A DNA stretch of 62,006 nt, from NCBI GenBank assembly GCA_041674205.1, contig JBAYWF010000007.1:1-62006 (forward strand), read 5' to 3'. Below, piece after piece: positions 23,998-44,221 of the stretch (the stretch's first letter is position 1; the number at the start of each line of letters is the position of its first letter). The position numbers were made by a program, and so were the translations under genes. Source of the DNA: Parcubacteria group bacterium (GTDB taxonomy: Bacteria; Patescibacteriota; Minisyncoccia; Moranbacterales; UBA2206). Under the pieces are notes generated by a model that searched no databases, was not told where the DNA came from, and worked only from the letters and a program-made list of their open reading frames with translations.

Positions 23998-24087
23998 AGT
24001 TTTAGGGTTGACTTTTGTTTTGTGGATGCTAGATTTCTTATAGTTCTTATTCAAGCGTTTTTAATAAAAAAGCAATCCAGGAGGGAA

Positions 24088-24510: not shown

Positions 24511-24516
24511 GGGAGG

Positions 24517-24732: not shown

Positions 24733-24797
24733 CCTGCCCCAAGCTCGATTGCAATACGAAGGCCAGTGATTTCCAATAGGTTATCGCTGGTCTTTTT

Positions 24798-24924: not shown

Positions 24925-25010
24925 ATAAAGAGAAATAAAATCTGTGGATATTTGCGATATTTGTGTTAAGCTAGGCATAATAATAAAAAAATAATTTGTA
25001 AAGAAATATT

Positions 25011-25613
25011 ATGAAAAATATTCAGGATAAACTCGATGCGTTTAAAGATATTGTTATAAAGAATATTCAAGGCAATGAAAATTTTCCATACAGGGAATGG
25101 TTTATTGATGATCACTTGATGATCGTTGAACGTATAGCCTTGGAGCTTTGCGACATTTATCCAGATGCCGATAGAAACCTGGTTGAGGCTCTTGTTTGGT
25201 TTCACGATTTTGGAAAACCAATTGACATGGGTAATGAATATGAGACAACTAAAACAAGAGGGGTTGAAGCTATGCGATCTATTGGTTTTGAGGAAAAATT
25301 TATCGAACGTGTTCTTGAACTGTGGGTAACGATGGAAAAAGAACAAGAGATTGATATTTCCAAAGAGGCTATCGAAGTACAGATTATCTGTTCAGCAGAT
25401 GGAGCTTCACATTTCACGGGGTTGTTCTATTCAAGCTATTTTCGCGATGAACGAGGCGAAAGCCTGGAATCGATTAAAAATCGGATTAGGGCGAAGATAA
25501 GAAAAGATTGGGAGAAGAAAATGGTGCTACCAGAAATAAAAAAAACATTTGAAAAACGATATATTAGAGCTTTGGAAATCGTTGGCGAATATCCGAATAA
25601 TTTTATTGTCTAA
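25011..25613 (+). CDS. HD-domain phosphohydrolase
   Basis: H...HD motif (ALVWFHDFGKP) and a downstream D (SADGASHF). Confidence 0.7.
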   Translation: MKNIQDKLDAFKDIVIKNIQGNENFPYREWFIDDHLMIVERIALELCDIYPDADRNLVEALVWFHDFGKPIDMGNEYETTKTRGVEAMRSIGFEEKFIERVLELWVTMEKEQEIDISKEAIEVQIICSADGASHFTGLFYSSYFRDERGESLESIKNRIRAKIRKDWEKKMVLPEIKKTFEKRYIRALEIVGEYPNNFIV

Positions 25614-25667
25614 AATTAATCTAATTACAAAGCTTTGAATCATATAGTGAGCAGCGCCGTGGGGTAA

Positions 25668-25790
25668 TTATATTTTCAAATCAGGAATATAGATATATCC
25701 TTTTGCATTCATAAAAATAGTTCTAACGTCCATGACTACCCCGTGCATGAAAAAATGAGGCTGAAAAAAGCCTCATTTTTGATAGGGGCA
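25668..25790 (-). repeat. cassette-junction module copy E, divergent (mini-ORF MHGVVMDVRTIFMNAKGYIYIPDLKI at 25668-25748, then hairpin type e)
   Basis: Only the CCCCGTGCAT end (25743-25748) and the first ~12 codons resemble copy A. Hairpin AATGAGGCT-gaaaaa-AGCCTCATTTTT. Confidence 0.55.
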
Positions 25791-26042
25791 AATTCATCTT
25801 CGGACACATTTCGATTTTTTTAATAAATTCATAGCATTTTTAGTGTGATGGTGATTTGTTCTTGACCAAGCGTAAAAACGTTGACATCCATTAAATCAAA
25901 TGCTAGGATTGCATATTCTTGATATATTACTAAAATAGTTCCTTGATACAAATAATTGTTATGCAAAAGGCCGCCATTGGCGGTAAACCAGGGTATGCGT
26001 TTTATAAAGCGTGCGCCCAAAACAAAAAAGGAGGTATGCATC

Positions 26043-26981
26043 ATGAAAAAAGATGTGCGCCAGCAAGAAGCTGAAGCAAAAGAAGAAATCGGACGTCGTC
26101 AGGGAGAGCAGTTGATTACAGCCCTGGAAAAGGCTGGGATAACCAAAAGACTCGGGAGCTTGATAGTGGAAAAAGAAGAGTATGCGAGATCCATTGTCCA
26201 TCTGCTTAGTTCTGGATCCCCAAAGATTTTCACAATGGACGATGAATCTTTGAGGAAAGTTTATTGGCATTGTTTCACGGGCATAAAAAGCCCGGAGGAG
26301 CAGGTTGATATTCTTTCCAAAGCATTCAAGGAGTTGGCAGACATACAGCTCAAACCTGGAAATGTTCTCGAAATGGCTGGTCGTATGTTTCCTTATTATC
26401 CCAAGCCGGCTGGTCCAGAAGGAATTCTTATTGTTCCCAAACTATCCTTCGTGATTAAGTGGGGAACTGGTGACTATTGCCTTGGATCAAAGAGGGTTCA
26501 GCGGGTAGTCGAAAGCACTCTCGACTTCTTGCAGTGGAATGTGGAGCCACAAGACAATTTTAATGAGAAGCGCGTGAGGCTTAATGAGAAAACAGAGAAG
26601 TCGCTTAAAAAGGTCGATCTGGAATTTAGTGGCGACTTGGTGGCTATACCCTTTCAGTTTGGAGCGTTACATAGAAGTTGCCCAAACTATGTTGTGGATA
26701 TGAGACTGCAGTGGGACGAATTCAAGTTGCCGACTTATGCAGGCGCTTGTGCGCTTATTACGCATCCAAATCGTCTTCAAATGAAAGGGTGTATCTCTCG
26801 TGACTCCTTGCATCTGGGATGTTCAGGGGATGAATTTTCTAGCAAGGGAGATGGGAATTTTGATGGGTATTGCTTTTACTACATAGGACCTGAAAGGGGC
26901 TATGATGCGAACCTTGGAGTCAGAATGGACGAGGTCGATAAATACCTTCCCAAGTTTGCCCCTATGACCGGATGGTGTTAA
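26043..26981 (+). CDS. hypothetical protein
   Basis: The ATG at 26043 is preceded by AAGGAGG. A TTGACA-17-TAGGAT promoter lies at about 25875-25903. Cys-rich C-terminal half. No family recognised. Confidence 0.6.
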   Translation: MKKDVRQQEAEAKEEIGRRQGEQLITALEKAGITKRLGSLIVEKEEYARSIVHLLSSGSPKIFTMDDESLRKVYWHCFTGIKSPEEQVDILSKAFKELADIQLKPGNVLEMAGRMFPYYPKPAGPEGILIVPKLSFVIKWGTGDYCLGSKRVQRVVESTLDFLQWNVEPQDNFNEKRVRLNEKTEKSLKKVDLEFSGDLVAIPFQFGALHRSCPNYVVDMRLQWDEFKLPTYAGACALITHPNRLQMKGCISRDSLHLGCSGDEFSSKGDGNFDGYCFYYIGPERGYDANLGVRMDEVDKYLPKFAPMTGWC

Positions 26982-27036
26982 GTCGTAAGTAATATTTCAA
27001 AGACAGGAGAGCCGAGGCTTTCTCTCCTGTCTTTTT

Positions 27037-27164
27037 TTATTTCATCAAAGCCATCGCTCGCTCTGATCTGATTTCAACTTTATCCAAATTCTCAAGGATA
27101 TTTGTCCGAATACTATCAAGCGTTCTGTGCATTCAAGAAGCAAGGCTTATTCGAGCCTTGCTTT
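27037..27164 (-). repeat. cassette-junction module copy F (mini-ORF MHRTLDSIRTNILENLDKVEIRSERAMALMK at 27037-27132, then hairpin type f)
   Basis: Module ends TCTGTGCAT (27127-27132). Hairpin GCAAGGCT-tattcg-AGCCTTGC plus T-run is the same type as in copy H. Confidence 0.8.
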
Positions 27165-27237
27165 TGCGTAGGGGTGGTGGGAATTAGAGCTGAATAATGA
27201 GATTGACATGGTTTCAGCAATGATATAAAATTTAAAT

Positions 27238-27621
27238 ATGAACAAGGACAATGCGACAAAACAAGAAGTAACCTTGGGTGACTTAGCAGCGATGGTGCGA
27301 GATGGTTTTGTCAATTCAGAAAAGGCGACGGACAAAAAAATCGATGACTTAGCAGCGATGGTGCGAGATGGCTTTGTCAATTCAGAAAAGGCGACGGACA
27401 AAAAAATCGATGACTTAGCGGCGATGGTACAAGAAGGTTTTTTGAGTGTGGAAAAAAGAATGGATGGTCTTGAGTCAAATATGAATGAGATTAAAACCGA
27501 TCTTTCGATTGTGAAATCCGATGTGTGCGAGGTCAAGGCTGAGCTGAATAAAAAAGTGGACAAGTTTGAACACAAAGACTTGGAATATCGTGTGGAAAAA
27601 TTAGAAAAGAAATTCGCCTAG
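27238..27621 (+). CDS. coiled-coil protein with 22-aa tandem repeats
   Basis: DLAAMVRDGFVNSEKATDKKID repeated about 2.5 times (66-bp DNA period, 27280-27440). TTGACA-17-TATAAA promoter upstream. Confidence 0.6.
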   Translation: MNKDNATKQEVTLGDLAAMVRDGFVNSEKATDKKIDDLAAMVRDGFVNSEKATDKKIDDLAAMVQEGFLSVEKRMDGLESNMNEIKTDLSIVKSDVCEVKAELNKKVDKFEHKDLEYRVEKLEKKFA

Positions 27622-27665
27622 AAATTCACGAAGTATTTAAAAAATGCGGAGGTAGTCCGCTTTTT

Positions 27666-27832
27666 TTATTTGCTCATTAAGGCTCTAGTTCGCTCCAATC
27701 TAATCCCAATCACATCCCAATTTTCCAGTATATTCTCTCGAAGCGCATACCCAATTTTTCAAAATATTGTTCCAGGTCATATCCATGACCTCGTGCATTC
27801 CAGAAACATCGGCCGCGAAAGCCGGTGTTTTT
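27666..27832 (-). repeat. cassette-junction module copy G, chimeric (B-type 3' part fused out of frame to an A-type 5' part), then hairpin type a
   Basis: 27666-27750 matches copies B/H. 27751-27798 matches copy A (ATATTGTTCC...GTGCAT). The downstream 27799-27940 is homologous to 21736-21860 but lacks the AbrB-like gene. Confidence 0.75.
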
Positions 27833-28012
27833 GTTTGCCAGAAGCTTCAAGCAAGCGTAAAATGTAGGTGGTAAGAGGATATCCATCTATAAACACTCTT
27901 CCTCATAAAAAACTAACAATAAAAAAGGTACCTGACCCAAATAACTTTTTTTCAAAGGCGGATTTGAAAGCATAGATTGGAGTGGATAAATATTATATTA
28001 TAATGAAAAAAT

Positions 28013-28462
28013 ATGGCAGAGGAATTTGAATTTTTTATGATTGGGCAGAAAGCCGCTCTTATCAGGGATGGAAAATGCTTGATCATTGAAATGGCAAGTA
28101 GGCCTGGTTTTTGGGAGCTGCCTGGCGGAAGAATAAACAAAGGCGAACTCAGAGAACAAGCTTTACGGAGAGAAATAAAAGAAGAGCTTGGATTGGATGA
28201 TTTTGAAATTTTGGGCGTGGTTGACTATGATGTCTGGCATCACAAAGGTGATGGCACGCCGTTTTGCGCTACTGTGCATTTGATAAAAAATGATTTTGAC
28301 AAGATTATTTTAAGCGATGAAAGTCTGCGATATGAATGGATCGCAGAAAATGAAATAGATAATTACAAATATTTTTGGGAAGCTTCACCGAAATTTATAA
28401 AAAATGGATTCAAATCGTATGGATTTATGAAAAAAGATCGGGAAATAGAGAAAGATGCCTGA
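28013..28462 (+). CDS. NUDIX hydrolase
   Basis: Nudix box GGRINKGELREQALRREIKEELGL. Confidence 0.8.
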   Translation: MAEEFEFFMIGQKAALIRDGKCLIIEMASRPGFWELPGGRINKGELREQALRREIKEELGLDDFEILGVVDYDVWHHKGDGTPFCATVHLIKNDFDKIILSDESLRYEWIAENEIDNYKYFWEASPKFIKNGFKSYGFMKKDREIEKDA

Positions 28463-28496
28463 CTCCTTTTTTCCATAATTATAATAGCCAAAAGTG

Positions 28497-28928
28497 ATGA
28501 AGCTAGAGAGGGCAACAATTGAAGATATCCAGGTGCTTTTGGAAATTGAAAAAACAACGGTGGGATTGAAGGTATATTCTGGATATTTCAATGAGAAAGA
28601 AATCGAGGGGTGGATTAAAAATGATGTCGTCTATCTTATCAAAAATGGGGAAAAAATTGCCGGCAGTATTTCATATGAAATAAAAGGCAAGGATCATGCA
28701 TATATAAGCGGATTAGTGATAAAGCCGGAATTTCAAAAACAGGGACTGGCCAAACAGGCGATGGAGTCGCTTTTTGGGGAATTGAAAGGCTTCGAAAAAA
28801 TAAGTCTCGTAGTCCACCCCGATAATCACGCAGCCAGGTTGTATGAATCATTTGGATTTGTGATTGAATCGCGCAAGGAAAACTATTTCGGTGATGGCGA
28901 GCCTCGCGTAGTTATGGTCAAACGCTAA
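28497..28928 (+). CDS. GNAT family N-acetyltransferase
   Basis: Acetyl-CoA motif A (VIKPEFQKQGLAKQAM) and YESFGF. The ATG at 28497 is preferred to the GTG at 28494. Confidence 0.75.
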   Translation: MKLERATIEDIQVLLEIEKTTVGLKVYSGYFNEKEIEGWIKNDVVYLIKNGEKIAGSISYEIKGKDHAYISGLVIKPEFQKQGLAKQAMESLFGELKGFEKISLVVHPDNHAARLYESFGFVIESRKENYFGDGEPRVVMVKR

Positions 28929-29065
28929 AGTTTAACGCTATTCATCAGAGCCATCGCACGCTCCAATCTAATCTCAATCACATCCCAATTTTCCAGTATA
29001 TTCTCTCGAAGCGCATACCCAAGCCCGTGCTGATTAAAACAAGGCTTATTCGAGCCTTGTTTTTG
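28925..29065 (-). repeat. cassette-junction module copy H (B-type mini-ORF lacking ATG; core GTGCTG), then hairpin type f
   Basis: Nearly identical to copy B across the module. It overlaps the GNAT stop codon. The hairpin AACAAGGCT-tattcg-AGCCTTGTT plus T-run matches copy F. Confidence 0.8.
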
Positions 29066-29243
29066 TATGAGTGCTTGACAAAAAAATGACTATGACAGAT
29101 AGTATTCTTAGAGTTCTAATTGGAAAAGTAGCCACACTTCTTATTAGGTCTTTGAAAATTATCATCAGGTAGTTTTCAGATCTTGAGATACTTATCTCAG
29201 GGAAATGTAGTTCTTATTATTTTTGCAAGAGGAGGTATAAATC

Positions 29244-29333
29244 ATGAAGTCCATTGTAAAAATCGAAAACATCGTTCTCCCGCCTGATTTCGTTTTTGAT
29301 GAAATCAGGCAACTCAACTCGGGCTCGGGCTGA
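29244..29333 (+). CDS. 29-aa candidate RiPP precursor/leader peptide (MKSIVKIENIVLPPDFVFDEIRQLNSGSG)
   Basis: Strong RBS (AGAGGAGG, 8 nt spacer), ATG start, TGA stop. Lies 135 nt upstream of a radical SAM/SPASM gene, with a hairpin+T-run attenuator in between. Confidence 0.45.
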   Translation: MKSIVKIENIVLPPDFVFDEIRQLNSGSG

Positions 29334-29414
29334 AGCATCAAATTTAATCACTCGGAGAGTGATACCTGCCGTATCTGCTGCGATTAAACTGGGCGAAGTG
29401 AGTCACTAAAACCA

Positions 29415-29453
29415 GCGGGGCGGGCTCATTTAGAGCTTTCCCCGCATTTTTTT
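29415..29453 (+). terminator. intrinsic terminator/attenuator between peptide ORF and radical SAM gene
   Basis: GCGGGG-19 nt-CCCCGC followed by ATTTTTTT. Confidence 0.5.
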
Positions 29454-29467
29454 AAGGAGGACTTGAG

Positions 29468-30466
29468 ATGGATCTTCGAGATGTGATAGATAGTTGTCAA
29501 ATTGATTTAACTAAAAATTGCAATTTGACCTGTTCGTTTTGTCGGCAAACCAACGAATCGGACTTGCCGGACAGCATGAGTTTCGTTCAATGGTCTTCGG
29601 TAATAGACCAGTTGCGCGGAATGAGCTGTAAGATGGTGGCTCTTGCGGGAGGTGAACCTTTGATGCATAAAGATTTCTTTTCAATTCTCGGTCTAGCAAC
29701 CGACATGATTGAGGATGTCTATGTGTTATCAAACGGAACATTGATCACGCAAAAAATTGCTACGCAGTTGGCCGAGAAGAAAATCAAGGGGTTGCAAATA
29801 TCCCTAGATGCTCTCAACCCAGTTTTGCATGATAAAATAAGGGGCAAGGTTGGCACTTGGGAGAAGGCCACGAGAGGAATGCGGTATGCGATAGACGCTG
29901 GAATCCCGGTAACTATCCGTACTACTGTTTATCGTGAGAACGTGCAAGAGGCAATGTCTCTCTTAGAATTCGCGCATGATATTGGGGCGAGAATCTATGG
30001 GATTAGGCGTGTGGTCCCGACAGGAAGGGGTGGATCGGTGGATTTGCTGAAGCCGGATGAATTGCATACATTGTTCGTGGCTTTGGCTAATAGAGCCAGT
30101 GAACTGAAGATGCGTCTTTCTTTGGGTGATCCATTTTCCCGTTCATTGCTGAATGAGCAATCATTTGTTGAAGGTAAGATAGGTGGATGTTCTGTTGGGC
30201 TGAATATTATGTATATAGCCCAAGACGGTTCGGTCTTGTTGTGTCCATGTCTCCCGGTGTATTGCGGAGATGTGAAACAGGATTCTGTGAAATCCATCTG
30301 GAGCGATGCAAAAGCTTATTCTGTTGCCAGATCTTTGCGATCAAATTTGCAGGGCAGGTGTGGAGAATGCAAGTACAAATTCCAATGCGGGGGCTGTAGG
30401 GCATCAGCTTTCTACTCATCTGGTAATATTTGCGGCGAGGATCCGGGTTGCTGGTACAAGCCTTGA
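29468..30466 (+). CDS. radical SAM protein with C-terminal SPASM domain (peptide-modifying maturase-like)
   Basis: CNLTCSFC (CX3CX2C) at residues 18-25, and GGEPL. The C-terminus has GGCSVG...CPC and CGECKYKFQCGGC...C auxiliary-cluster cysteines. Confidence 0.85.
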   Translation: MDLRDVIDSCQIDLTKNCNLTCSFCRQTNESDLPDSMSFVQWSSVIDQLRGMSCKMVALAGGEPLMHKDFFSILGLATDMIEDVYVLSNGTLITQKIATQLAEKKIKGLQISLDALNPVLHDKIRGKVGTWEKATRGMRYAIDAGIPVTIRTTVYRENVQEAMSLLEFAHDIGARIYGIRRVVPTGRGGSVDLLKPDELHTLFVALANRASELKMRLSLGDPFSRSLLNEQSFVEGKIGGCSVGLNIMYIAQDGSVLLCPCLPVYCGDVKQDSVKSIWSDAKAYSVARSLRSNLQGRCGECKYKFQCGGCRASAFYSSGNICGEDPGCWYKP

Positions 30467-30516
30467 GAGTGAGGGGGACGAATTTATTTAAAAAATCCCC
30501 CTTACTCTGAAATATT

Positions 30517-30948
30517 ATGAATAAAATTAATTTAGAAATTTTTGATAAAAAATATATTCCCACTTTGATGGGTTGGTATTCCAATCCTAATAATAGGAAA
30601 TACATGCTAACGCAAACTACTACGGAGGAGAATGCTTTTAAAATGATTCGGAATGATGAGAATAGAAAGTGCTATTGTATTGAGTTGGATAATCTGCCAA
30701 TCGGGTATATTGTGCTTATGAATATTCAATCTAAAATCGGAAGAGTTGTCATGATGATTGATGAACCATTTACCAAAAAAGGATATGGATTTCAATCGCT
30801 TGTCATTTTGGAAAAGGAGGCTGTAAAATTGGGGGTGGAAAGATTAACTTTGGAGGTTCGCACGGATAATGTCGCCGCTATTTCTCTTTATAAAAAATTC
30901 GGATTTGGTTTGAAGTATATCGAAGCAGTAATGGAAAAAGAAATATAA
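30517..30948 (+). CDS. GNAT family N-acetyltransferase (RimJ/RimL-like)
   Basis: 143 aa with KKGYGFQSL and YKKFGF motifs. No terminator between it and the radical SAM gene. Confidence 0.7.
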   Translation: MNKINLEIFDKKYIPTLMGWYSNPNNRKYMLTQTTTEENAFKMIRNDENRKCYCIELDNLPIGYIVLMNIQSKIGRVVMMIDEPFTKKGYGFQSLVILEKEAVKLGVERLTLEVRTDNVAAISLYKKFGFGLKYIEAVMEKEI

Positions 30949-31079
30949 AAATAAGTGCTTCATTGGATCCCATTTCTTTATTTTGAAATATTAAAGCGCA
31001 TTGGCAGTATTATATAATGGGTATATATTCATAATATATGCTTAGTTTAAAATCTAAAATAGAAAGGTGGGTGATAAAT

Positions 31080-31328
31080 ATGCCACAACAAGATACGACG
31101 GGACCGATGGGAATGGGACCTATGACCGGAAGAGGCGCGGGTTCTTGCGGAAAAGGATCCGGCTTAGGAATGGGCAGGGGTTATGGCAGGGCGATGTGTG
31201 GATGGTTTTATCAAAAATACCAGGCTATGCCGAAAAATGAAAGAAAAGACATGCTAAAATCGGAAATTGAAGATTTGAAACAAGAAATGCGAATGGTGGA
31301 GGAAGAACTGGAAGAACTGGAAAAGTAA
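31080..31328 (+). CDS. DUF5320 family protein (Gly/Met-rich N-terminus, coiled-coil C-terminus)
   Basis: MPQQDTTGPMGMGPMTGRGAGSCGKG... is the characteristic DUF5320 N-terminus. The ATG at 31080 is preceded by AGGTGG, and a terminator follows. Confidence 0.7.
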   Translation: MPQQDTTGPMGMGPMTGRGAGSCGKGSGLGMGRGYGRAMCGWFYQKYQAMPKNERKDMLKSEIEDLKQEMRMVEEELEELEK

Positions 31329-31412
31329 CCATTTCTATCATGAGCAGTCTTTCTCCTTCTTTGTCCAGTAAAGAGGGAGGAGATTGTTTTTGATAGCAGG
31401 ATTAATCAGCTA

Positions 31413-31700
31413 ATGAATAAATTTATGGTAAGGCCAAGAATGTTTCGCAGGCTTCGTTTCAGGCCCGAAAGTCACTATTTCAAACCCCAGGGAATTCCTA
31501 TGCATCAACTGGAGGAAGTGATCTTGACTAAAGAAGAAATGGAAGCGATAAAGCTGAAAGATTTTGACGGATTGGAACAGATTGAAGCTTCGGAAAAAAT
31601 GAATACTTCGCAAAGCACTTTTCAGCGGATCCTAACTTCGGCTAGAATTAAAATCGCCGAGGCGATTGTCAAGAGCAAATCATTAAAAATCGAAGAATAA
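31413..31700 (+). CDS. DUF134 (UPF0251) family putative DNA-binding protein
   Basis: FKPQGIP...LTKEEMEAIKLKDFDGLEQIEASEKMNTSQSTFQRIL matches the DUF134 HTH layout. Confidence 0.75.
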   Translation: MNKFMVRPRMFRRLRFRPESHYFKPQGIPMHQLEEVILTKEEMEAIKLKDFDGLEQIEASEKMNTSQSTFQRILTSARIKIAEAIVKSKSLKIEE

Positions 31701-34584: not shown

Positions 34585-34856
34585 TTTTTTAAAAAATTAA
34601 TAATTATAACTATTTCGTAATACACTGGCCGGCGGTTTATATTTCGTGTGATTTTTAACCGGCAGCTGTTTCTGATCATGCTGTCCCGGTGGCACATACT
34701 GAAAAAGGCCGGGAAAAATTTAAAAAAACGGAACAATGGAGAGTCAGAATCGGAACCGGCTGGCCATATTGACAAAACATTCCAAATGTGACAAGATGCA
34801 CAGTTGGCTGGTGAGGAGGATAAACCTTCTTTTACAATATAACAGAGGTGCGGAAT

Positions 34857-35738
34857 ATGGTTAAAGACGTATCGTCAGGTTGCTGTATGGAGTTAGATGA
34901 ATTGAAAAGCTTTCTTGATAACGCCCATGATTTGTTCCAGGGCGTAGATGGGGAAGGAAAAATAGTATATGTCAACAAGGCTTGGCTTGACAGCCTTGAA
35001 TATGATAAAGAAGAAGTCATGGGTAAAAATATTTTCACGTTTATCGCTCCGGACTCATTGGATCATTGCTTGAAAAAATTCGAGCATTTGATGAATGGCG
35101 GGAAACTTGTGAATCTGGAGGTGACGTTTCTGACGAAATCCGGAGGAAGGATTATTGCAGAGGGAAACGTGGTCCTGATTCACAGGGCGGACGGATCATT
35201 TTTTACCCGCGGAATCTTCCGCGACATAACGGAGCGGCGGGAATTGGAAAAAAATATTTTCCATCTCGCTACCCATGACGCATTGACGGACTTGATGAAT
35301 CGTCACGCATTCATGGATTGTTTGGCTAAGGATATGGAATATGCCAAACGTTATGGACAAAAAATAGCCATCGTTTATTTCGACCTGGATAGGTTCAAGC
35401 AGATCAATGATAGTTTTGGCCATGCTGCCGGGGACGCTGTCCTGGTGGCGGTGGCAAACAGGCTGAAGGCCTATATGCGCGGCAGCGATTATGCCGTTCG
35501 TTTCGGTGGCGATGAATTCGGGCTGGCGATAAAGTCTATCAGTAGCCAGGAAATATCCGTGGTGGTAAATAGGCTGACCGAAGCCGTTACGGAACCGATC
35601 ATTTTCAGCGGTCACACGCTGACCGTGGGTATGAGCGTCGGTCTGGCCATCTATCCGGATGACGCTCAAAAGGCGGAGGAATTGATAAGATTGGCCGATG
35701 CCAAGATGTATGGGAATAAGGCACGGCAAAGGGATTGA
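34857..35738 (+). CDS. PAS-domain diguanylate cyclase (GGDEF)
   Basis: PAS N-terminus and a GGDEF domain with RFGGDEFG. Confidence 0.85.
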   Translation: MVKDVSSGCCMELDELKSFLDNAHDLFQGVDGEGKIVYVNKAWLDSLEYDKEEVMGKNIFTFIAPDSLDHCLKKFEHLMNGGKLVNLEVTFLTKSGGRIIAEGNVVLIHRADGSFFTRGIFRDITERRELEKNIFHLATHDALTDLMNRHAFMDCLAKDMEYAKRYGQKIAIVYFDLDRFKQINDSFGHAAGDAVLVAVANRLKAYMRGSDYAVRFGGDEFGLAIKSISSQEISVVVNRLTEAVTEPIIFSGHTLTVGMSVGLAIYPDDAQKAEELIRLADAKMYGNKARQRD

Positions 35739-35991: not shown

Positions 35992-36423
35992 ATGATACAA
36001 AAAGCATATTTGGCGATGGGTTGTTTTTGGGGGCCGGATGAATTCTTCTCCGATTTGCCGGGTGTTTTCAGGACACGCGTCGGATATAGCGGAGGAGGGA
36101 AAGCCAATCCGACGTATAACGATTTAGATGGGCATTCCGAGACTGTCGAAATCGAGTTTGACCCTGGAAAAATGCCGTACGCGGAGATTCTAAAATATTT
36201 TTTCAGCGAGCAGGATCCCGGAAGCCGGGAAGAAACACGGTATCGCTCAGCTATTTTTTATTTGGATGATGCGCAAAAAGAGATCGCCGAAGCGGCCAAA
36301 AAAGAAGCGGAAAAAGAATATGGTCCGATTGCGACCTCTATCGAGCCTTTTGGAAAATTTTATCCAGCCGAAGGATACCATCAAAAATATCTGCAAAAAT
36401 TAAAAGCTGAAAAAATGCTATGA
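35992..36423 (+). CDS. msrA: peptide-methionine (S)-S-oxide reductase
   Basis: GCFWG active-site motif and GYHQKY. Confidence 0.9.
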   Translation: MIQKAYLAMGCFWGPDEFFSDLPGVFRTRVGYSGGGKANPTYNDLDGHSETVEIEFDPGKMPYAEILKYFFSEQDPGSREETRYRSAIFYLDDAQKEIAEAAKKEAEKEYGPIATSIEPFGKFYPAEGYHQKYLQKLKAEKML

Positions 36424-36830
36424 TTGAGAAAATAAACAAAAGTTCGGACGAATGGAAAAAAATCCTGACTCCGGATGTTTATGCGATTACGCGTGGCAAC
36501 GGAACCGAACCGGCTTTCAAAAATGCCTATTGGAACAATGAAAAAGAAGGATTATATAAATGCTCCAATTGCCAGCTTGTACTTTTCAGTTCCGAACATA
36601 AATTCGATTCCGGAACCGGCTGGCCGAGTTTTTGGAGGTCCTATAAAGAAGAAAATGTGGTTTTCCATACCGATCGTTCACAGGGCATGGTTCGGAAAGA
36701 AGCCCGTTGCGCCCGTTGCGGTTCGCACTTGGGGCATGTTTTTGAAGATGGTCCGGTGCCGACAGGTTTGCGGTTCTGTATGAATTCCGCCGCGCTTATT
36801 TTTGAACAGGATCTACCCGATGAAATTTGA
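36420..36830 (+). CDS. msrB: peptide-methionine (R)-S-oxide reductase
   Basis: CxxC...CxxC zinc site, GHVF and RFCMNS motifs. The start overlaps the msrA stop (ATGA). Confidence 0.9.
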   Translation: MIEKINKSSDEWKKILTPDVYAITRGNGTEPAFKNAYWNNEKEGLYKCSNCQLVLFSSEHKFDSGTGWPSFWRSYKEENVVFHTDRSQGMVRKEARCARCGSHLGHVFEDGPVPTGLRFCMNSAALIFEQDLPDEI

Positions 36831-36970: not shown

Positions 36971-37636
36971 ATGCGCATTTTAGTCGTAGAAGACGAACCG
37001 GCAATCGTGAGAATAATCAAAAACGGCTTGCAACAAAGCGGGCATATAGTCGATACCGTGGAAGATGGAGGTGAAGCGAAGAGCCGCGTGGAGATTTATG
37101 ACTACAATGTCATAATTTTGGACATAATGCTGCCGGGAGCTGACGGGCTCGAGATATGTAGCTATATCAGGAAATTGGAGCTGGATTCTAAAATAATAAT
37201 GCTTACCGCCAGGGATGATATCGATAACAAAGTTTCCTGCTTGAACGCGGGCGCTGACGATTATATGACCAAGCCTTTTTCCATCGTGGAACTGGAAGCC
37301 CGCGTCCGGGCGGTCGGCCGTCGGGAACGGATCGCTTGCGGGACGAAATTGGAAATGAAAACTTTGAAAATCGACCCGCTTACCAAAGCGGTTTTCGTGA
37401 AAGGCAAACCCATCAAGACATCCTTGACCGAATACCGCCTTTTGGAATATCTTTTGCGCCACCGGAATGAAATCTGCACCCGGACGATGCTGGGCGAGAA
37501 CGTTTGGGGCGACAAGGAGCATGTTTCCAACGTGATAGACGTCACTATCAGCAAATTGCGGAAAAAACTGAAAAAAGCCAACGACGATATGGACATAATC
37601 CACACGATTCCGAAATCCGGGTACAGGGTCTATTAA
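36971..37636 (+). CDS. OmpR-family response regulator
   Basis: Receiver domain (VEDE...ILDIMLPGADG...K) plus a C-terminal winged-helix trans_reg_C domain. Confidence 0.9.
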   Translation: MRILVVEDEPAIVRIIKNGLQQSGHIVDTVEDGGEAKSRVEIYDYNVIILDIMLPGADGLEICSYIRKLELDSKIIMLTARDDIDNKVSCLNAGADDYMTKPFSIVELEARVRAVGRRERIACGTKLEMKTLKIDPLTKAVFVKGKPIKTSLTEYRLLEYLLRHRNEICTRTMLGENVWGDKEHVSNVIDVTISKLRKKLKKANDDMDIIHTIPKSGYRVY

Positions 37637-37650
37637 AAGTTTCAATTAAA

Positions 37651-38808
37651 ATGGATATGGATAAATTGAACGAACTGAATAAACGGATTTTGGATAGCGC
37701 GCCTATCAGTATCATAACCATAGATAAGAATGGGAATATAACTTCGGCTAATAAGTATTATCAAAATTTTTCCGAAAACAAGAATTATCAAAATTGCAAT
37801 ATATTCACCAATGACTTTTTCATAAGAGAAGGGTTGTTGAAAGATTATAGGAGACTGCTGGATAAAGGCGTAGCGTTCAGGAAAGAAAATTGTTATGAAC
37901 GGAATAACAAAGGTGAAGATAAATACTTCAAAATTATCGCGGTACCATTGCGCGATAAGAATGGGAATGTAGATGGCGCTTTATCTATGGCGGTAGATAC
38001 CACTGACGCCGTGCTGTTCAAGAATGAATTGGAAAAATTGAACAGGGAATTGGAGGCTAAGGTAAAACTGAGAACCATCAAATTGAATGACGCCAATAAA
38101 AAACTAAATAAGGTTCTTGAATTGAAATCTACGTTTATGTCCGATATATCCCACGAGCTTCGGACCTCGCTGGCAATTATCCAAGGCAACGTCGAATTGT
38201 CCGTCAATTGTTTGGGTATTAAGGTTGATGATCTGGAATCTTGCAAACAGGTCACTCTGGAAATCAAGCGGATGTCGTCTATGCTGTCAGATTTGACTTT
38301 GTTGTCCAATTCCAGCGCGTCCGAACAAAAATTGAAATTTGAAAAATTCAATTTGGATGATCTGATCAAATCCACACTCAAGGCATTAAAGGCGGTGGCC
38401 CGAGAAAAAAACGTCAAGTTGCGACACAAAAAAAACGAAGCTTCCTTGGAAATAAAGGCCGATTATGACAAGTTGGAAAGATTATTGATTAATCTGATCA
38501 GAAATGCTATACGTTATAATAAGCCAAATGGCTGGGTGGATGTCTGGGCTGAAGAGGTAGGGGATAATATCGTCCTGAAAGTGAAGGATAATGGCATCGG
38601 GATACCCAAGGAGCATCTATCTAACGTTTTCGAACGTTTTTATCGGGTAGACAAGGCCCGATCAAGGCGTGAAGGCGGTTCCGGTCTGGGCCTGGCCATT
38701 TGCAAATGGGTTGCGGAAGCGCATAATGGCCAAATAGATGTTTCCAGTGAAGTCGGAAAAGGCACTCTTTTCACGGTGCGTTTGCCGAAGAAACTGAAAA
38801 AACAATGA
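37651..38808 (+). CDS. cytoplasmic PAS sensor histidine kinase
   Basis: ATG at 37651; the longer ORF from 37504 overlaps the RR gene. PAS domain, H-box SHELRTSL, N/G boxes NAIRYN, DNGIGI, GGSGLGLAI. No TM segments seen. Confidence 0.85.
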   Translation: MDMDKLNELNKRILDSAPISIITIDKNGNITSANKYYQNFSENKNYQNCNIFTNDFFIREGLLKDYRRLLDKGVAFRKENCYERNNKGEDKYFKIIAVPLRDKNGNVDGALSMAVDTTDAVLFKNELEKLNRELEAKVKLRTIKLNDANKKLNKVLELKSTFMSDISHELRTSLAIIQGNVELSVNCLGIKVDDLESCKQVTLEIKRMSSMLSDLTLLSNSSASEQKLKFEKFNLDDLIKSTLKALKAVAREKNVKLRHKKNEASLEIKADYDKLERLLINLIRNAIRYNKPNGWVDVWAEEVGDNIVLKVKDNGIGIPKEHLSNVFERFYRVDKARSRREGGSGLGLAICKWVAEAHNGQIDVSSEVGKGTLFTVRLPKKLKKQ

Positions 38809-38872
38809 ACATGGAAGTTTAAAAGAGGCGTATGGATCCTAAATGATCTTTAAAAACCAATGAGGTGATGAG

Positions 38873-40198
38873 ATGGAAAAAAATGAGAAGTTAAAAGTTC
38901 TGATTGTGGATGACAGCCACTTTGATCTCACTCTCATTGCCAATCAGCTTGACGGCAGTGAGTTCGAGGTTTTTTTGGCCCAGGATGTCAATGAGGCGGT
39001 GGAGGCAATGCGGAACAATCATTTCTCCCTGGCAATGATTGACATCAATCTGGGAGTGGAGGATGGCTCCCAGGTCGGAAGGGCTTTGCAGGAAGCCGAT
39101 CCTGCAATGGCAACCATCTTGATGACCGGGGCGGTCGGAAACTTCCGCGAAGCCTTCGAGGGCTTTGACGAATATATCGTCAAGGGGTGTTGCGAAGAAG
39201 ATTTATTGCGGATAATCCGAAACACTTTATATAGGCATATGATGCCTCGCGAAATAAGGTTTCGGAGGCTGGAATTGTTATACAATCTTCAGCCATGCAA
39301 AGAATTGCTTTCGGGCGTGTATCGCAGGATAATTTCCGAGCCTGCTGGCGACCTCGAAAAGATGGTCGGAAAACTGTCCAAGGATAAAAAATTTATTTCT
39401 TGGAACGTATATAGGCTCATGACAAGTCCTAATGCGTTTACGACCAGTTGTGTTTCAACGGTCGGATGCATCGGCCGTTGCCGTTTTTGCGTGCACGGTC
39501 GGGACTATCTTGTCCGGCTTCTGGACTGGCAGGAGATAGTCGCCCAAGTCCTGTATTCCCTGGACAGTCTATTGGCCAAAGGGGTTTTTGAACCAGACAT
39601 GGTTTTGCAGCCTAAGCTCAACTTTACGGGTATGGGCGAACCCCTTTCCAATCTTAAAAATGTTAATCTGGCTATTCGTAGGTTAGCCGCCATCAAGGAT
39701 CTTGACTTCAGGTTCATAATTACGACCATCGGTCGTGAACTCGATTTGAAAATGTTTGTCAATAGCCTTGATAATCTAGATATGGATCTCTCGAGATTGA
39801 GATTGTATCTGTCAATCAATTTCATGGATCCGGAAATGCGAAAAAAGATGATGCCGGCCACTAAGAACCAGAATCTGGCGGCAATCCGGGACTGGGCTCT
39901 CAAGTTCGGAGAGAAAACCGGAAACACCACTACGGCGTCGTTCATCTTGGTTCCTGGAATGAATGACGGTGATGCCGAAGGTATGGTCAGGGATTGGGGC
40001 GAGTTCGATATAAAATTGCAAGCTTTTGCCTCGTCTCCGGGCTTCAAGCCGTTAAAAACGGCCAGCAAGTCCCAGTTGGAAGAATTCAGGGAAAAGCTGG
40101 TCCAGGCCGGTGCGAAAAATGTCCGCATCCGGACCGTGATCGGCAGCTCTCGGAATGCTGGTTGCGGTTCAAATTCACCAGATCGGGAATTGTTTTGA
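38873..40198 (+). CDS. receiver (REC) domain fused to RlmN/Cfr-family radical SAM methyltransferase
   Basis: Residues 1-120 are CheY-like (VDDS, MIDINL). The C-terminal part has SCVSTVGCIGRCRFC, GMGEPLSN, SINFMDPEMRKKMMP, ILVPGMND and a terminal NAGCG. These are collinear with RlmN/Cfr motifs, including both mechanistic cysteines. Confidence 0.75.
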   Translation: MEKNEKLKVLIVDDSHFDLTLIANQLDGSEFEVFLAQDVNEAVEAMRNNHFSLAMIDINLGVEDGSQVGRALQEADPAMATILMTGAVGNFREAFEGFDEYIVKGCCEEDLLRIIRNTLYRHMMPREIRFRRLELLYNLQPCKELLSGVYRRIISEPAGDLEKMVGKLSKDKKFISWNVYRLMTSPNAFTTSCVSTVGCIGRCRFCVHGRDYLVRLLDWQEIVAQVLYSLDSLLAKGVFEPDMVLQPKLNFTGMGEPLSNLKNVNLAIRRLAAIKDLDFRFIITTIGRELDLKMFVNSLDNLDMDLSRLRLYLSINFMDPEMRKKMMPATKNQNLAAIRDWALKFGEKTGNTTTASFILVPGMNDGDAEGMVRDWGEFDIKLQAFASSPGFKPLKTASKSQLEEFREKLVQAGAKNVRIRTVIGSSRNAGCGSNSPDRELF

Positions 40199-40603
40199 TT
40201 TCAAAAGGATAGCTGGCGCGATATCGCATCGGCTATCCTTTTTTTAATGGATTTTTAATCCATAAATATTGATATTTGCTTTATTTAAGGAGAATATCGT
40301 TTTTTAATAAATATTTAATAGGTTAATTTGGTATTATGGTAATACCTTTCGGGATATTCCATAATGGAGTATGGGAGGATCAGACGACGGCTATTTGTTG
40401 GTCCGATAAAAAAATCGGCCGATAGCCGAAAAAATTATGCCCGAAGCGATCGTCGCGGTCCGACAAAAAATAATTTTCTTTCGATAAAAAATCCGGATTA
40501 CTCCGGATTTTTGCCGGGCTTGACTCCTTTTTTCCGGCGGATGGATCGCGAAGTTTTTTTGAGGTCAGTTCCAGCGGACGCTTTTTTGTGGTAGGATTTA
40601 CGT

Positions 40604-41770
40604 ATGGAAAATAAAACATATTTGCCGGACTATCGGGGTGGGAGTATCGTCAATCTGATAAGTTCAATTAAGAAAGCTTTCGGAGGGAGTTCACAGTATG
40701 AACCGCTCAAGGATTTTGATGTTTCAGGTTTTGCGAAAAAAAGCATAGTGATAATCGTCATAGATGGATTGGGTTATGAATATTTGGTCAGATACGGCCA
40801 AGGCAGTTTTTTGCGTGAAAATCTGAAAGGCCGGATGACTTCGGTTTTTCCGGCGACAACCGCCGCGGCGATGACGAGCCTCCTATCCGGCGTCGCTCCG
40901 CAGCAACACGCCTTGACGGGCTGGTTTATGTATTTGAAGGAAATCGGGATACTTTCGGTGGTTATTAGATTTGCCTCTAGAGCTGGTAGGATTAATTTAT
41001 GCAAAAGCAGGATAAGCTTTGGTGATGTTTACGGACAGGAAAGTCTTTTTGAAAAATTGGATGCGGTTTCATTTTTGGTCAAGCGCAAGGATTATATCGG
41101 CAAGGCATATTCCCTTGCGACTTCCCGGGGAGCGGAGCGATTGGGCTACGTGACTTTGAACGGATTTTTCCGGCAGATACACAGGGCTTTGGATGGCAAT
41201 CGGAGCAGGAAATACGTATTCGCGTATTGGGACAGGTTCGATAACGTATGTCACAAAAAAGGGACGGATAGCCGGGAGGCGGAAAAACATTTCAGGGAGC
41301 TGGATAAGAAAATAGCGTCATTAGCCAAATCATTGGAAAACGAAAACACGGCGATTATCGTCACGGCCGACCATGGTTTGATTGACACGAAGGAGAGCGA
41401 TAGGATCATCGAATTGAAAAACCATCCGGAATTCGCCGCGACATTGTCGATGCCGCTGGCTGGAGAATTGCGGGCCGCCTATTGCTACGTGAAGCCGGAT
41501 ATGATCGGACAATTCGAGGATTATGTCAAGAGAAATTTCAACCAGTATTGCGATATGCATAAAAGCGCGGATCTGATCGAAAAAAATTATTTCGGTCTCT
41601 ATGGGCCGGATAGTAGGTTGGCAGATCGGATCGGCGATTACACTCTCATAATGAAAGAAAATTATATCATAAAGGATTCGGTTTTGGGTGAGGAGTATAA
41701 AATTTTTATCGGCAACCATGGTGGGACCAGCAAGGAGGAAATGTTCGTGCCGCTGGTCGTCATAGGATAG
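40604..41770 (+). CDS. alkaline-phosphatase superfamily phosphodiesterase/pyrophosphatase-like protein
   Basis: VIDGLGYEY, FPATTAAAMTSLLSG (nucleophile Thr) and IVTADHG metal-site motifs. Confidence 0.7.
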   Translation: MENKTYLPDYRGGSIVNLISSIKKAFGGSSQYEPLKDFDVSGFAKKSIVIIVIDGLGYEYLVRYGQGSFLRENLKGRMTSVFPATTAAAMTSLLSGVAPQQHALTGWFMYLKEIGILSVVIRFASRAGRINLCKSRISFGDVYGQESLFEKLDAVSFLVKRKDYIGKAYSLATSRGAERLGYVTLNGFFRQIHRALDGNRSRKYVFAYWDRFDNVCHKKGTDSREAEKHFRELDKKIASLAKSLENENTAIIVTADHGLIDTKESDRIIELKNHPEFAATLSMPLAGELRAAYCYVKPDMIGQFEDYVKRNFNQYCDMHKSADLIEKNYFGLYGPDSRLADRIGDYTLIMKENYIIKDSVLGEEYKIFIGNHGGTSKEEMFVPLVVIG

Positions 41771-41972: not shown

Positions 41973-43208
41973 TCAGTTGATGAAAGTCAAAGCAGTCCCG
42001 GTTTTGTCAGCGCGACCGGTCCGGCCGATACGGTGGATGTAGTCTTCATAGCTGGCTGGCAGATCGAAGTTGATGACATGGCTGACGTTTGGGATATCTA
42101 ATCCGCGGGCGGCGACATCGGTAGCGACCAGGATATCTATGCGGCCGTTCTTGAATTGCTGCAATGAGTGTTGGCGCTGGTAGTGCGATTTATCGCCATG
42201 GATCGATTCCGCTTTGAAACCTAACTTAGCGAGGGCTTGGGAAAGTTTTTCCGCTCCGCGCTTGGTGCGGGTAAAAATCAGGATTTTTTGGAAATGCGAT
42301 TGGATGAGCAGTTTGCGCAGGACTTCCACTTTGTCTTCATCTTTGCCGACACGCACGATATCTTGGTCGACTTGGGCCGAAGTCTCGCGCGACTTGATGG
42401 AAATCCGGATCGGATCAGTCAGGAATTGTTGGACTAAAGCTTCGATCTCCTTGGAAAGCGTGGCGGAGAAAAGCAATGTGTGCCGCGGACTGGACAAAAG
42501 TGACATCAATAATTTGACATCATTGATAAAGCCCATATCTAACATCCGGTCGGCTTCGTCCAATACGACATTAGTGAAAGTTTCCAGTTTCAAATCTTTG
42601 CGGTTGATGAGGTCTTTGAGCCGTCCGGGCGTACCGATGACGACATTGTGTCGCGAACGCAGGCGTTGGATCTGTGGACGGATATTGGCACCGCCGACCG
42701 CTACGACCGCCTGGATGCGGAGCCCTTCGGTAAAAGCGATGAATTCTTCTTGGATCTGGATGGCAAGTTCGCGGGTCGGAACGACAATTAGCAGTTTCTG
42801 TTTTGGATCGTGGATGATCTTATCGATCATCGGCAACAAGAAAGCGCCGGTCTTGCCGGTGCCGGTATTAGCCAGTCCGATGACATCTTTGCCAGCCAGG
42901 ATGTGGGGGATAGTTTTAGCTTGGATGTCGGTAGGATGCTCAAATCCGCGTTTTTCAATCGCGCGTTTCAAAAGGCTATCGAGGGCGAGATCGGCAAAAA
43001 GCGATTTTACGGTATGGACCGTTTCCGCTTGCGCCGGCTCGGCTTTGTTGATGAACATCTTCGGGTCGATATAGGCGCCGGTAAATCCGCCTTTGCGGCT
43101 TCCGCCGGAACTTTTACGGCTATTGGCGGTTTTTACGCCTCTGAATCTTGAATTTTGGGCAGGCCGTCCTGTCGGGGCGGAATTGCGCCTCGGGTTTCTA
43201 TTGTACAT
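41973..43208 (-). CDS. DEAD-box ATP-dependent RNA helicase
   Basis: Q-motif, AxTGTGKT, DEAD, SAT and HRIGRTGR motifs. Arg/Gly/Ser-rich N-terminal tail. Confidence 0.9.
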   Translation of the reverse strand: MYNRNPRRNSAPTGRPAQNSRFRGVKTANSRKSSGGSRKGGFTGAYIDPKMFINKAEPAQAETVHTVKSLFADLALDSLLKRAIEKRGFEHPTDIQAKTIPHILAGKDVIGLANTGTGKTGAFLLPMIDKIIHDPKQKLLIVVPTRELAIQIQEEFIAFTEGLRIQAVVAVGGANIRPQIQRLRSRHNVVIGTPGRLKDLINRKDLKLETFTNVVLDEADRMLDMGFINDVKLLMSLLSSPRHTLLFSATLSKEIEALVQQFLTDPIRISIKSRETSAQVDQDIVRVGKDEDKVEVLRKLLIQSHFQKILIFTRTKRGAEKLSQALAKLGFKAESIHGDKSHYQRQHSLQQFKNGRIDILVATDVAARGLDIPNVSHVINFDLPASYEDYIHRIGRTGRADKTGTALTFIN

Positions 43209-43393: not shown

Positions 43394-44221
43394 ATGGCAA
43401 TGGAAACTGAAATCCAACCGGAAGCGGTCCGACCACGGGCTGAAAAGATGTTCCTCCTGGTTTTTGTCCTGCTGATAGCCGGTTCGATAGGCGTAACCTA
43501 TTGGAAGATAATGGTCAAGCGCGATTATGTGATTATGGCGCAAGCCGATTGTGATCCATATGAGGAAAAATGTTTCGTGCATATTTGCGATCCGGATCCG
43601 GCTGCAGACGGGGAGTGGTGCACGGGCGATCCGGAAGAGGATACTTGGTATACGAAAAACATCCGTCGTATGGCCTATAATATTCCGGATTGCGATCCGA
43701 ATGACGAGGATTGCGCGGCTCTGGTTTGCGAAGAAGGGGAGGAAAATTGTTCCTATGAATATTGCGACGGAACAAATGTTCCGGAAGGCGACACTTGCAA
43801 CGATCCGGTGCGATATGCTATAGATAATCCGGCGGAGGATGAAGAAGCTGAATGTGATCCGGAAACGGAAGAAGATTGCGTCATTGAAGAGGGGGTGGAA
43901 TGTGATCCGGAGACCGATGATTGCGCGGCCAGCGAAGGAACTGAGTGCGATCCGGCCACTGAGGATTGCAACGTCGAAGAGAATCCAGCCGCATGCGATC
44001 CGGAAACGGAAGATTGCGCGGTGGATGGAACCGCTGAATGTGATCCGGCTACGGAAGATTGTAGTGCTGGGGATGCTGCTGAGTGCGATCCAACCACGGA
44101 GGATTGCGGCGCGGATGGGAATTCTGCGGCTGGCGAAAGCCTTTCGGTTTCAGATGGCATAAATGCGGATAGTTCCTGCCAAAGCGATGCTGACGGAGTA
44201 TGTCCGCTGGGAAAAGAATAG
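43394..44221 (+). CDS. membrane-anchored acidic Cys-rich repeat protein (CDPxTEDC repeats)
   Basis: One N-terminal TM helix, then 11 CDP motifs including 7 tandem ~14-aa units of xECDPxTEDCxxxx. Confidence 0.65.
   Translation: MAMETEIQPEAVRPRAEKMFLLVFVLLIAGSIGVTYWKIMVKRDYVIMAQADCDPYEEKCFVHICDPDPAADGEWCTGDPEEDTWYTKNIRRMAYNIPDCDPNDEDCAALVCEEGEENCSYEYCDGTNVPEGDTCNDPVRYAIDNPAEDEEAECDPETEEDCVIEEGVECDPETDDCAASEGTECDPATEDCNVEENPAACDPETEDCAVDGTAECDPATEDCSAGDAAECDPTTEDCGADGNSAAGESLSVSDGINADSSCQSDADGVCPLGKE

Follow-up and report, generated by a model that had tools for sequence, protein, structure and literature searches.

In a 62,006-nt contig of a Parcubacteria group bacterium (JBAYWF010000007.1, assembly GCA_041674205.1; this whole stretch of DNA is hereafter called the window), a gene that directly follows a two-component system encodes a 441-amino-acid (aa) protein in which a CheY-like receiver (REC) domain is fused to a radical S-adenosylmethionine (SAM) core of the RlmN/Cfr type. 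We propose that this protein, here termed REC-rSAM, functions as a true response regulator and that its output domain is a catalytically competent radical SAM enzyme belonging to a third branch of the RlmN/Cfr superfamily, and we put the probability of this reading at about 0.55.

Receiver domain and radical SAM core

A sequence-only reading of this DNA had described three open reading frames (ORFs), an OmpR-type response regulator, a PAS histidine kinase and the 441-aa protein. All three are present on the forward strand (Table 1), and the motifs listed for the 441-aa protein (MIDINL, SCVSTVGCIGRCRFC, GMGEPLSN, LSINFMDPEMR, ILVPGMND and NAGCG) all occur in its translation. When the receiver was aligned with E. 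coli CheY, all five signature residues were retained: D13, D14, D57, T85 and K104 correspond to CheY D12, D13, D57, T87 and K109. As the phospho-acceptor D57 is present, the objection that this could be a pseudo-receiver without an acceptor aspartate fails, and the earlier description of the domain as intact is borne out. Among the 87 family representatives introduced below, D57 was kept in 80, K104 in 82 and a threonine or serine at position 85 in 81. An AlphaFold2 (AF2) model built from an alignment of 66 family sequences (predicted local distance difference test (pLDDT) 95.2, predicted template modelling (TM) score 0.93) contains five β–α units across residues 7–122, and 3CRN was among the receiver structures matched by Foldseek (TM-score 0.83).

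The C-terminal domain is a true homologue of the RlmN/Cfr superfamily, as had been claimed. In a profile–profile comparison with hhalign, the 66-member family profile matched an RlmN/Cfr profile with a probability of 100% and an E value of 2e-41 over 270 columns, family columns about 159–438 aligning to RlmN about 90–362. A phmmer search of PDB sequences returned E. coli RlmN (3rf9, E 5e-12, residues 190–435) and a radical SAM methyltransferase of Sphaerobacter thermophilus (6FZ6, E 1e-10). At the level of structure, the top 11 PDB matches of the AF2 model in Foldseek were 6FZ6, E. coli RlmN and Cfr (E 9e-19 to 4e-10). The best of them, 6FZ6 (E 9e-19, TM-score 0.69 on the target), has no REC domain and is uncharacterised as far as its PDB title shows. 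E. coli RlmN (3RFA, 5HR7; E 1e-15 to 1e-16) adopts the same radical SAM fold, a partial TIM barrel with a β-extension, to which the connector strands 146–182 of REC-rSAM correspond at RlmN residues ∼90–115. Cfr (9P0P) shares the superfamily, the fold and the cysteine-based template of the mechanism.

The CX3CX2C cluster motif, here C199-x3-C203-x2-C206, was kept in 87, 87 and 86 of the 87 representatives, respectively, and C431 in the C-terminal loop NAGCGS, which corresponds to the A/G-C-G loop of RlmN, aligns with RlmN C355 and Cfr C338 and is cysteine in 83. G255, the acidic residue 256, S314, R323 and N364 are also common to the family and RlmN/Cfr, within shared G-x-G-E/D, S-x-H/N, R and N-D motifs. 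In RlmN, C355 carries the methyl group and forms a thiomethylene radical, and C118 is needed for methylation, its mutation trapping a covalent RNA adduct (PMC5130265). When essential residues were checked by alignment, the cluster cysteines and C431 thus held, whereas the position of the resolving cysteine is occupied by serine.

Retention of the SAM-binding and core motifs and of the C431 loop at 25–30% identity would be unexpected for a purely structural module. This speaks against the view that the domain is a non-catalytic Fe-S module, such as a redox or oxygen sensor, and that the whole protein serves the kinase as a scaffold or as a sink for phosphate. Such a role would fit the loss of the second mechanistic cysteine in most members, the PAS domain of the kinase and the position of msrA and msrB, genes of oxidative repair, just upstream in the window; we consider it very improbable.

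Operon structure and kinase linkage

An intrinsic terminator lies directly after the REC-rSAM stop codon, so that the transcription unit comprises regulator, kinase and REC-rSAM, and the phosphodiesterase-like gene further downstream is separate. The terminator folds with a free energy of −24.7 kcal/mol (z −5.2), none of 200 shuffled sequences folding equally well, and its hairpin is kept with compensatory changes in the related locus L005 and partly in L001. In the first gene, the phospho-acceptor aspartate of the OmpR-type regulator, which was likewise aligned with CheY, lies within IILDIM. The kinase ORF spans 37,504–38,808, and its probable start is the in-frame ATG at 37,651, 14 nt past the stop codon of the regulator. 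Because the maximum Kyte–Doolittle mean over 19 residues is 1.17, meaning that there is no hydrophobic or transmembrane segment, we agree with the sequence-only reading that the kinase is soluble.

We compared gene context in 13 informative loci spanning the family. In ten of them (the window, L001, L005/6, L004, L007, L093/94, L096, L097, P0163 and P0165) the next gene upstream, on the same strand and 26–190 nt away, encodes a HisKA/HATPase kinase, usually with PAS_4. Two further loci have a kinase within two genes: in L095 one gene intervenes, and in L003 the kinase lies directly downstream, is larger, contains PAS and is 26% identical to that of the window. At P0182, no kinase was found within 3.7 kb upstream or 7 kb downstream. 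Full-length orthologues of the window kinase without transmembrane segments are present in L004, L007, L093, L095, L096 and L097 (in descending order, 60%, 56%, 45%, 43%, 43% and 40% identity), and this orthology of 40–60% holds even where the radical SAM proteins are ∼33% identical. Most loci have no second regulator beside the kinase, the OmpR-type regulator being limited to the window's clade and L003, which identifies REC-rSAM as the probable cognate partner of the kinase. This is strong comparative evidence that a soluble PAS kinase and REC-rSAM form the conserved unit and a predicted cognate pair. The link to a two-component system, first proposed from adjacency in the window, is therefore stronger than thought, an orthologous kinase being adjacent in nearly all relatives, and it suggests signal-controlled radical methylation.

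In three divergent loci (the window, P0182 and L095), a gene for a PAS-GGDEF diguanylate cyclase lies close to that for REC-rSAM, and the methionine sulfoxide reductase genes msrA and msrB lie immediately upstream of the window operon. This context may reflect a redox or oxidative-stress link of the PAS kinase.

Size and sources of the family

When HMMER was run exhaustively against 1.84 billion representatives, the family profile matched at least 87 clusters across both domains. These are clusters at 50% identity with full-length members (about 420–500 aa), fragments coming in addition, and they are tiny, with one to three members each. The same fusion of REC and radical SAM domains thus defines a sizeable family rather than a one-off. 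An impression of near-uniqueness, given by a word-indexed search with the single protein that returned 7 members among 5.8 billion, was dismissed as a sensitivity artefact on the basis of the HMMER profile search; a word-indexed search with the 66-sequence profile drew overwhelmingly proteins with REC alone and gained almost nothing. A frameshift or assembly fusion of two genes was also considered and rejected: REC and core recur together in proteins of 81%, 75%, 45%, 43% and 30% identity from independent samples and in the at least 87 representative clusters, so the architecture is not an artefact. A pattern scan of GTDB species representatives found canonical RlmN alone (24–33% identity) and no fused member, which is weak evidence given the narrow patterns used; a corresponding scan of metagenomes yielded one locus, L096. 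PADLOC, which covers defence systems, gave no match for REC-rSAM.

Among the matches listed, the named sources are Candidatus Staskawiczbacteria, Candidatus Moraniibacteriota, 'bacterium' and one metagenome-assembled genome labelled 'Leadbetterella sp.', and those credibly named all belong to the Candidate Phyla Radiation (CPR)/Patescibacteria. The Leadbetterella (Bacteroidota) label belongs to L001 (GCA_030681715.1, JAUXRQ010000084.1), which encodes a 75%-identical orthologue. L001 is syntenic with the window, a Moranbacteria locus, through a pentapeptide protein, Transgly_assoc, the response regulator, the histidine kinase, REC-rSAM, the phosphodiesterase, a DEAD helicase and an AA_kinase. 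In view of this synteny the label is doubtful, and the contig is probably mis-binned or mis-assigned. Family members are annotated as 'response regulator' by NCBI and as RlmN or CheY-like by the Joint Genome Institute (JGI) pipeline.

Position relative to RlmN and Cfr

The best NCBIfam match of REC-rSAM is RlmN (TIGR00048), at 71.3 bits against an equivalog cut-off of 290. A second RlmN model, PRK11194, scored 53.3 bits against 633, and the Cfr models (TIGR04432 and NF000424) scored 42–46 bits against 530–550. For a phylogeny we used neighbour-joining on 240 core columns, with the family, 44 RlmN and two Cfr sequences and 100 bootstraps. In 98 of the 100 replicates, a clade free of RlmN and Cfr was recovered that lacked no more than three of the family sequences; the exact split between the family and the rest was recovered in 0–1. 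Mean identity is 0.22 between the family and RlmN and 0.23 between the family and Cfr, compared with 0.36 between RlmN and Cfr. For REC-rSAM itself, core identity is ∼30% to RlmN and 26–27% to Cfr, and there is no grouping with Cfr or Cfr(D).

The earlier statement that REC takes the place of the RlmN N terminus was confirmed. RlmN residues 1 to ∼90 have no counterpart in the hhalign alignment, and REC (1–122), the helix 126–145 and the first long β-strand stand in their place. The RlmN_N domain (PF21016) gave no match in the 441-aa protein or in any of the 66 family members, whereas residues 18–77 of E. coli RlmN were matched.

The description of the core as a complete RlmN/Cfr core was, however, too strong. 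RlmN C118 and Cfr C105 lie seven residues before the first cluster cysteine; here the homologous column holds S192, with a cysteine one residue later, and ∼80% of the family have no cysteine at this position. Across representatives, position 192 is cysteine in 14 of 87, glycine in 38, serine in 16 and alanine in 16. The shifted cysteine, C193, is confined to the window's own clade (3/87). Other members have an alternative cysteine at position 253 (41/87, reading CEGD instead of GMGE) or at 264/265.

The pocket also differs. Positions within 5 Å of A2503 in an AlphaFold3-generated Cfr–rRNA model (bioRxiv 10.1101/2025.09.18.677109) map to a family-specific set, including Tyr180 (83/87), N250 (64/87) and T252 (62/87); T284, Y312 and K381 are family-specific as well. 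Of the A2503-proximal positions, R420 and C431 alone are common to the family and RlmN/Cfr, and K381 stands where asparagine is invariant in eight aligned RlmN and Cfr reference sequences. The net charge of the core, +5, is similar to that of RlmN.

Together, the low scores, the missing N-terminal domain, the cysteine shift, the distinct pocket and the separate clade lead us to place the radical SAM domain, as judged from sequence comparison, in a predicted third branch of the class A methylases that is neither RlmN nor Cfr. An assignment to one or the other is thus not supported.

RlmN is a dual-specificity radical SAM methylase that forms m2A2503 in 23S rRNA and m2A37 in tRNA, and REC-rSAM could be a housekeeping RlmN of this kind that acquired a regulatory receiver. 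RlmN is indeed its top curated family and its best sequence match in the PDB, the window's clade retains the RlmN-like GMGEPLxN and AGCG motifs, the JGI pipeline names such proteins automatically after RlmN or CheY, and the 62-kb window encodes no canonical RlmN. As canonical rlmN is patchy across CPR genomes (PMC12641178), replacement by the fused form is conceivable. However, 71 bits fall far below the cut-off of 290, the family branches apart from RlmN and Cfr in 98 of 100 bootstraps, and its ∼22% identity to RlmN is below the ∼36% of Cfr. In addition, the RNA-contacting RlmN_N domain is absent, the C118 position is variable, the substrate-proximal residues differ, and a constitutive step of ribosome maturation would be unlikely to be placed under a dedicated kinase. 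We therefore regard a housekeeping RlmN as quite improbable.

Cfr is the 23S rRNA m8A2503 methylase that provides resistance against phenicols, lincosamides, oxazolidinones, pleuromutilins and streptogramin A (PhLOPSA). A Cfr-like resistance methylase induced by a signal such as antibiotic exposure would share superfamily and fold with REC-rSAM, but the match to Cfr is weaker than that to RlmN and far below the cut-offs, the sequences do not group, and the A2503-proximal residues are mostly not kept. Furthermore, the kinase, which contains a PAS domain, is a cytoplasmic protein with no obvious drug-sensing module, and the loci lie amid ordinary chromosomal genes, not next to resistance genes or mobile elements. 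This is the least probable of the explanations considered. A target at rRNA A2503 or tRNA A37 and, above all, Cfr-type resistance, as raised by the sequence-only reading, are extrapolations.

Downstream phosphohydrolase genes

In the window's 12-member sub-clade, the gene that follows REC-rSAM always encodes a phosphohydrolase, although its superfamily varies: HAD-IA, MazG or a nucleotide pyrophosphatase/phosphodiesterase (NPP)-type enzyme (Table 1). In the 671-aa representative P0229, REC, radical SAM and HAD domains form a single polypeptide, in which the C-terminal cysteine loop is retained. Outside the sub-clade (L003, L097, P0163, P0165 and P0182) the linkage is absent, barring a convergent HD gene in L093.

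This context bears on the most serious rival to our reading, namely that REC-rSAM acts on a substrate other than rRNA, for instance a nucleotide in free form, a metabolite derived from nucleotides or some other small molecule, maybe by chemistry other than the two-cysteine mechanism of RlmN, and that the partner phosphohydrolase processes its substrate or product. The constant phosphohydrolase neighbour and the P0229 fusion favour such a role, as do the variable resolving cysteine, the loss of the RNA-binding N-terminal domain and the distinct conserved pocket. Against it, the linkage does not extend beyond the sub-clade, the HD gene of L093 aside; the phosphodiesterase gene of the window is set apart from REC-rSAM by a terminator and a 405-nt spacer; genes of the HAD and HD type and their like are widespread, so that the association could be due to chance; and the core charge resembles that of RlmN. 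To our knowledge, every class A methylase characterised so far has RNA as its substrate. On balance we consider this alternative unlikely.

Within the 405 nt that separate the REC-rSAM terminator from the phosphodiesterase-like gene lies a conserved, structured-looking element. RNAalifold predicted 42 pairs in it, of which 5 show compensatory changes. The element is preceded by an AT-rich sequence resembling a promoter and includes a terminator-like hairpin of its own (CCGGA-n5-TCCGG followed by a T-run, ∼40,493–40,515). Rfam reported no family at the gathering score for the spacer. Candidate roles for the element are a small RNA and, for the downstream gene, a leader or riboswitch. An extended −10-like box (TGgTAGGAT) lies just 6 nt before the ATG of the phosphodiesterase-like gene, a position that hints at a leaderless mRNA.

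Proposed mechanism

Several features of the family weigh against a catalytically competent radical SAM output of the RlmN/Cfr type. The resolving cysteine is off its homologous position, C193 being a putative substitute, and in 11 of the 87 representatives C431 is present although 192, 193, 253 and 264/265 all lack cysteine. Given this variability of the resolving cysteine, the reaction may depart from the RlmN cycle as usually described, and canonical RlmN chemistry may not apply. As far as profile searches can tell, the RNA-binding N-terminal domain of RlmN is missing; Y180, N250, T252, Y312 and K381 are unlike both RlmN and Cfr; and the linkage to HAD, MazG and phosphodiesterase genes in the sub-clade hints at a non-rRNA, nucleotide-type substrate.

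We nonetheless favour REC-rSAM as a response regulator with an active radical SAM output, and propose the following model. The soluble PAS kinase would sense a cytoplasmic cue, autophosphorylate and pass the phosphoryl group to D57 of REC; in the window's clade it probably also phosphorylates the OmpR-type regulator. In the modelled structure REC occupies the place of the RNA-binding N-terminal domain of RlmN, and helix 126–145 would join it to the extension 146–182, which is predicted to line the substrate side of the barrel and bears the family-conserved Y180. Because REC stands in the place of the N-domain and a single helix leads from it to an extension with a pocket residue, we propose that phosphorylation gates substrate access or catalysis. 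The [4Fe-4S] cluster on C199, C203 and C206 would cleave SAM, which would be used twice as in RlmN, and C431 would take the role of RlmN C355, first as methyl carrier and then as thiomethylene radical. The likeliest reaction would be C-methylation of a purine sp2 carbon in RNA or a nucleotide-type substrate. The model builds on the observed architecture, homology, fold, conserved residues, operon organisation and joint inheritance of kinase and regulator; phosphotransfer, gating by REC, the methylase chemistry and the substrate are its inferred parts.

A more specific version is that, in a dedicated two-component pathway of CPR bacteria, a cytoplasmic PAS kinase turns a radical SAM RNA methylase on or off without an intermediary, giving signal-dependent, post-transcriptional C-methylation of the rRNA or tRNA of the translation apparatus by a third class A lineage in which the resolving cysteine is re-engineered or dispensed with. 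We put this forward tentatively, as a possibility that is somewhat doubtful.

Other features of the window

The IspG protein encoded in the window is 96% identical to a protein of a Candidatus Moranbacteria metagenome-assembled genome, and the next ∼100 matches with names come from Moranbacteria or Patescibacteria, which marks the window as part of a CPR chromosome. The window also holds genes for ribosomal protein S2, tRNAs, aminoacyl-tRNA synthetases and an AcrB-type pump. A DEAD-box RNA helicase is encoded on the opposite strand 2–6 kb downstream of REC-rSAM in Moranbacteria and Staskawiczbacteria loci; this proximity could be coincidence or a weak RNA-related association. Another ORF specifies a protein of 275 aa, in which a hydrophobic segment at the N terminus is followed by about eight tandem acidic, Cys-rich repeats (E-C-D-P-x-T-E-D-C); Pfam gave no match for this protein. 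Directly after a tRNA cluster (Thr-Tyr-Thr-Trp), GC content drops to as low as 0.34 at ∼21,000–31,500, compared with about 0.46 elsewhere. This stretch, which contains many small ORFs, may have been acquired as an island or may be a gene cluster for peptide modification.

Table 1. Coordinates of the REC-rSAM operon, of sites within REC-rSAM and of neighbouring features (window positions unless a locus is named)
Feature	Position	Strand	Evidence or remark
OmpR/PhoB-type response regulator, 221 aa (REC + winged-helix)	36971–37636	+	First operon gene; Pfam Response_reg 3e-30, Trans_reg_C 4e-21
Soluble PAS-HisKA-HATPase histidine kinase, 385 aa from ATG 37651	37651–38808	+	H-box SHELRTSL; Pfam PAS_4, HisKA, HATPase_c
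Shine-Dalgarno-like GAGGTGA, 4 nt ahead of REC-rSAM ATG	38862–38868	+	Direct sequence reading
REC-rSAM ORF, 441 aa	38873–40198	+	Pfam Response_reg 9–115 (E 6e-14), Radical_SAM 195–373 (E 5e-9)
REC (CheY-like) domain, residues 1–122	38873–39238	+	Pfam Response_reg E 6e-14; CheY alignment; modelled (β-α)5 fold
D13/D14	38909–38914	+	
Phospho-acceptor D57	39041–39043	+	
T85	39125–39127	+	
K104	39182–39184	+	
Connector, residues 123–185	39239–39427	+	AF2 secondary structure: long helix 126–145, then three long β-strands 146–182
Y180 (connector)	39410–39412	+	Family-specific
RlmN/Cfr-type radical SAM core, residues 186–441 plus stop	39428–40198	+	NCBIfam, phmmer, hhalign, Foldseek
S192/C193	39446–39451	+	
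Cluster C199/C203/C206	39467–39490	+	
GMGEP, residues 253–257	39629–39643	+	
K381	40013–40015	+	Family-specific
C431	40163–40165	+	Methyl-carrier equivalent
Intrinsic terminator, 17-bp hairpin then TTTTTTT	40203–40249	+	RNA folding; directly 3′ of REC-rSAM stop
Spacer element	40340–40515; L001:9395–9600; L005:9445–9650	+ (window)	Mean column identity 76%, three loci
NPP-type gene (alkaline-phosphatase/NPP)	40604–41770		Likewise in L001, L005
HAD-IA gene	L004:8631–9323; L095:9373–10077; L096:2516–3196		≤73 nt after or overlapping rSAM gene
MazG gene	L007:3139–3804		After REC-rSAM
PAS-GGDEF / msrA-msrB	34848–35738 and 35992–36830		
PAS-GGDEF in L095	L095:11584–12783		
DEAD-box RNA helicase	41973–43208; L001:14878–16113; L093:14402–15661	− (window)	
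275-aa repeat protein	43394–44221	+	
tRNA cluster	20242–21003		
PP-loop ATPase-like ORF	22174–23136		Low-GC stretch
HD-domain ORF	25011–25613		Low-GC stretch
Radical SAM-SPASM maturase-like ORF	29468–30466		Low-GC stretch

Comparison with other response regulators and implications

Described outputs of response regulators bind DNA, RNA or proteins, and a few are enzymes (methylesterase, cyclic di-GMP cyclase or phosphodiesterase, phosphatase). Examples of the latter are CheB (methylesterase), PleD and WspR (GGDEF), RocR (EAL), PorX (alkaline-phosphatase-like) and RssB (PP2C-like), in all of which an N-terminal REC domain controls a C-terminal enzyme in partnership with a kinase, as proposed here. 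RocR, PorX and RssB also turned up as receiver-level structural matches of REC-rSAM in Foldseek. As far as is known, and in the literature searched, no response regulator has a radical SAM enzyme as its enzymatic output domain. We found no description of REC or CheY-like fusions to radical SAM enzymes in that literature, in line with the earlier statement that no REC–RlmN fusion had been characterised. A radical SAM enzyme would thus represent a new class of response-regulator output, and a rare case of a two-component system acting directly on radical-based modification rather than on transcription.

As a third lineage beside RlmN and Cfr, in which the methyl-carrier cysteine is fixed while the resolving cysteine wanders or disappears, the family would provide naturally occurring variants in which to study resolution of the covalent intermediate, or else a pointer to different chemistry. 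The current names, 'response regulator' and RlmN/CheY-like, may distort surveys of rlmN presence in CPR bacteria. CPR bacteria have minimal genomes with few regulators; a two-gene signalling module that is conserved across divergent lineages is therefore likely to matter to their physiology.

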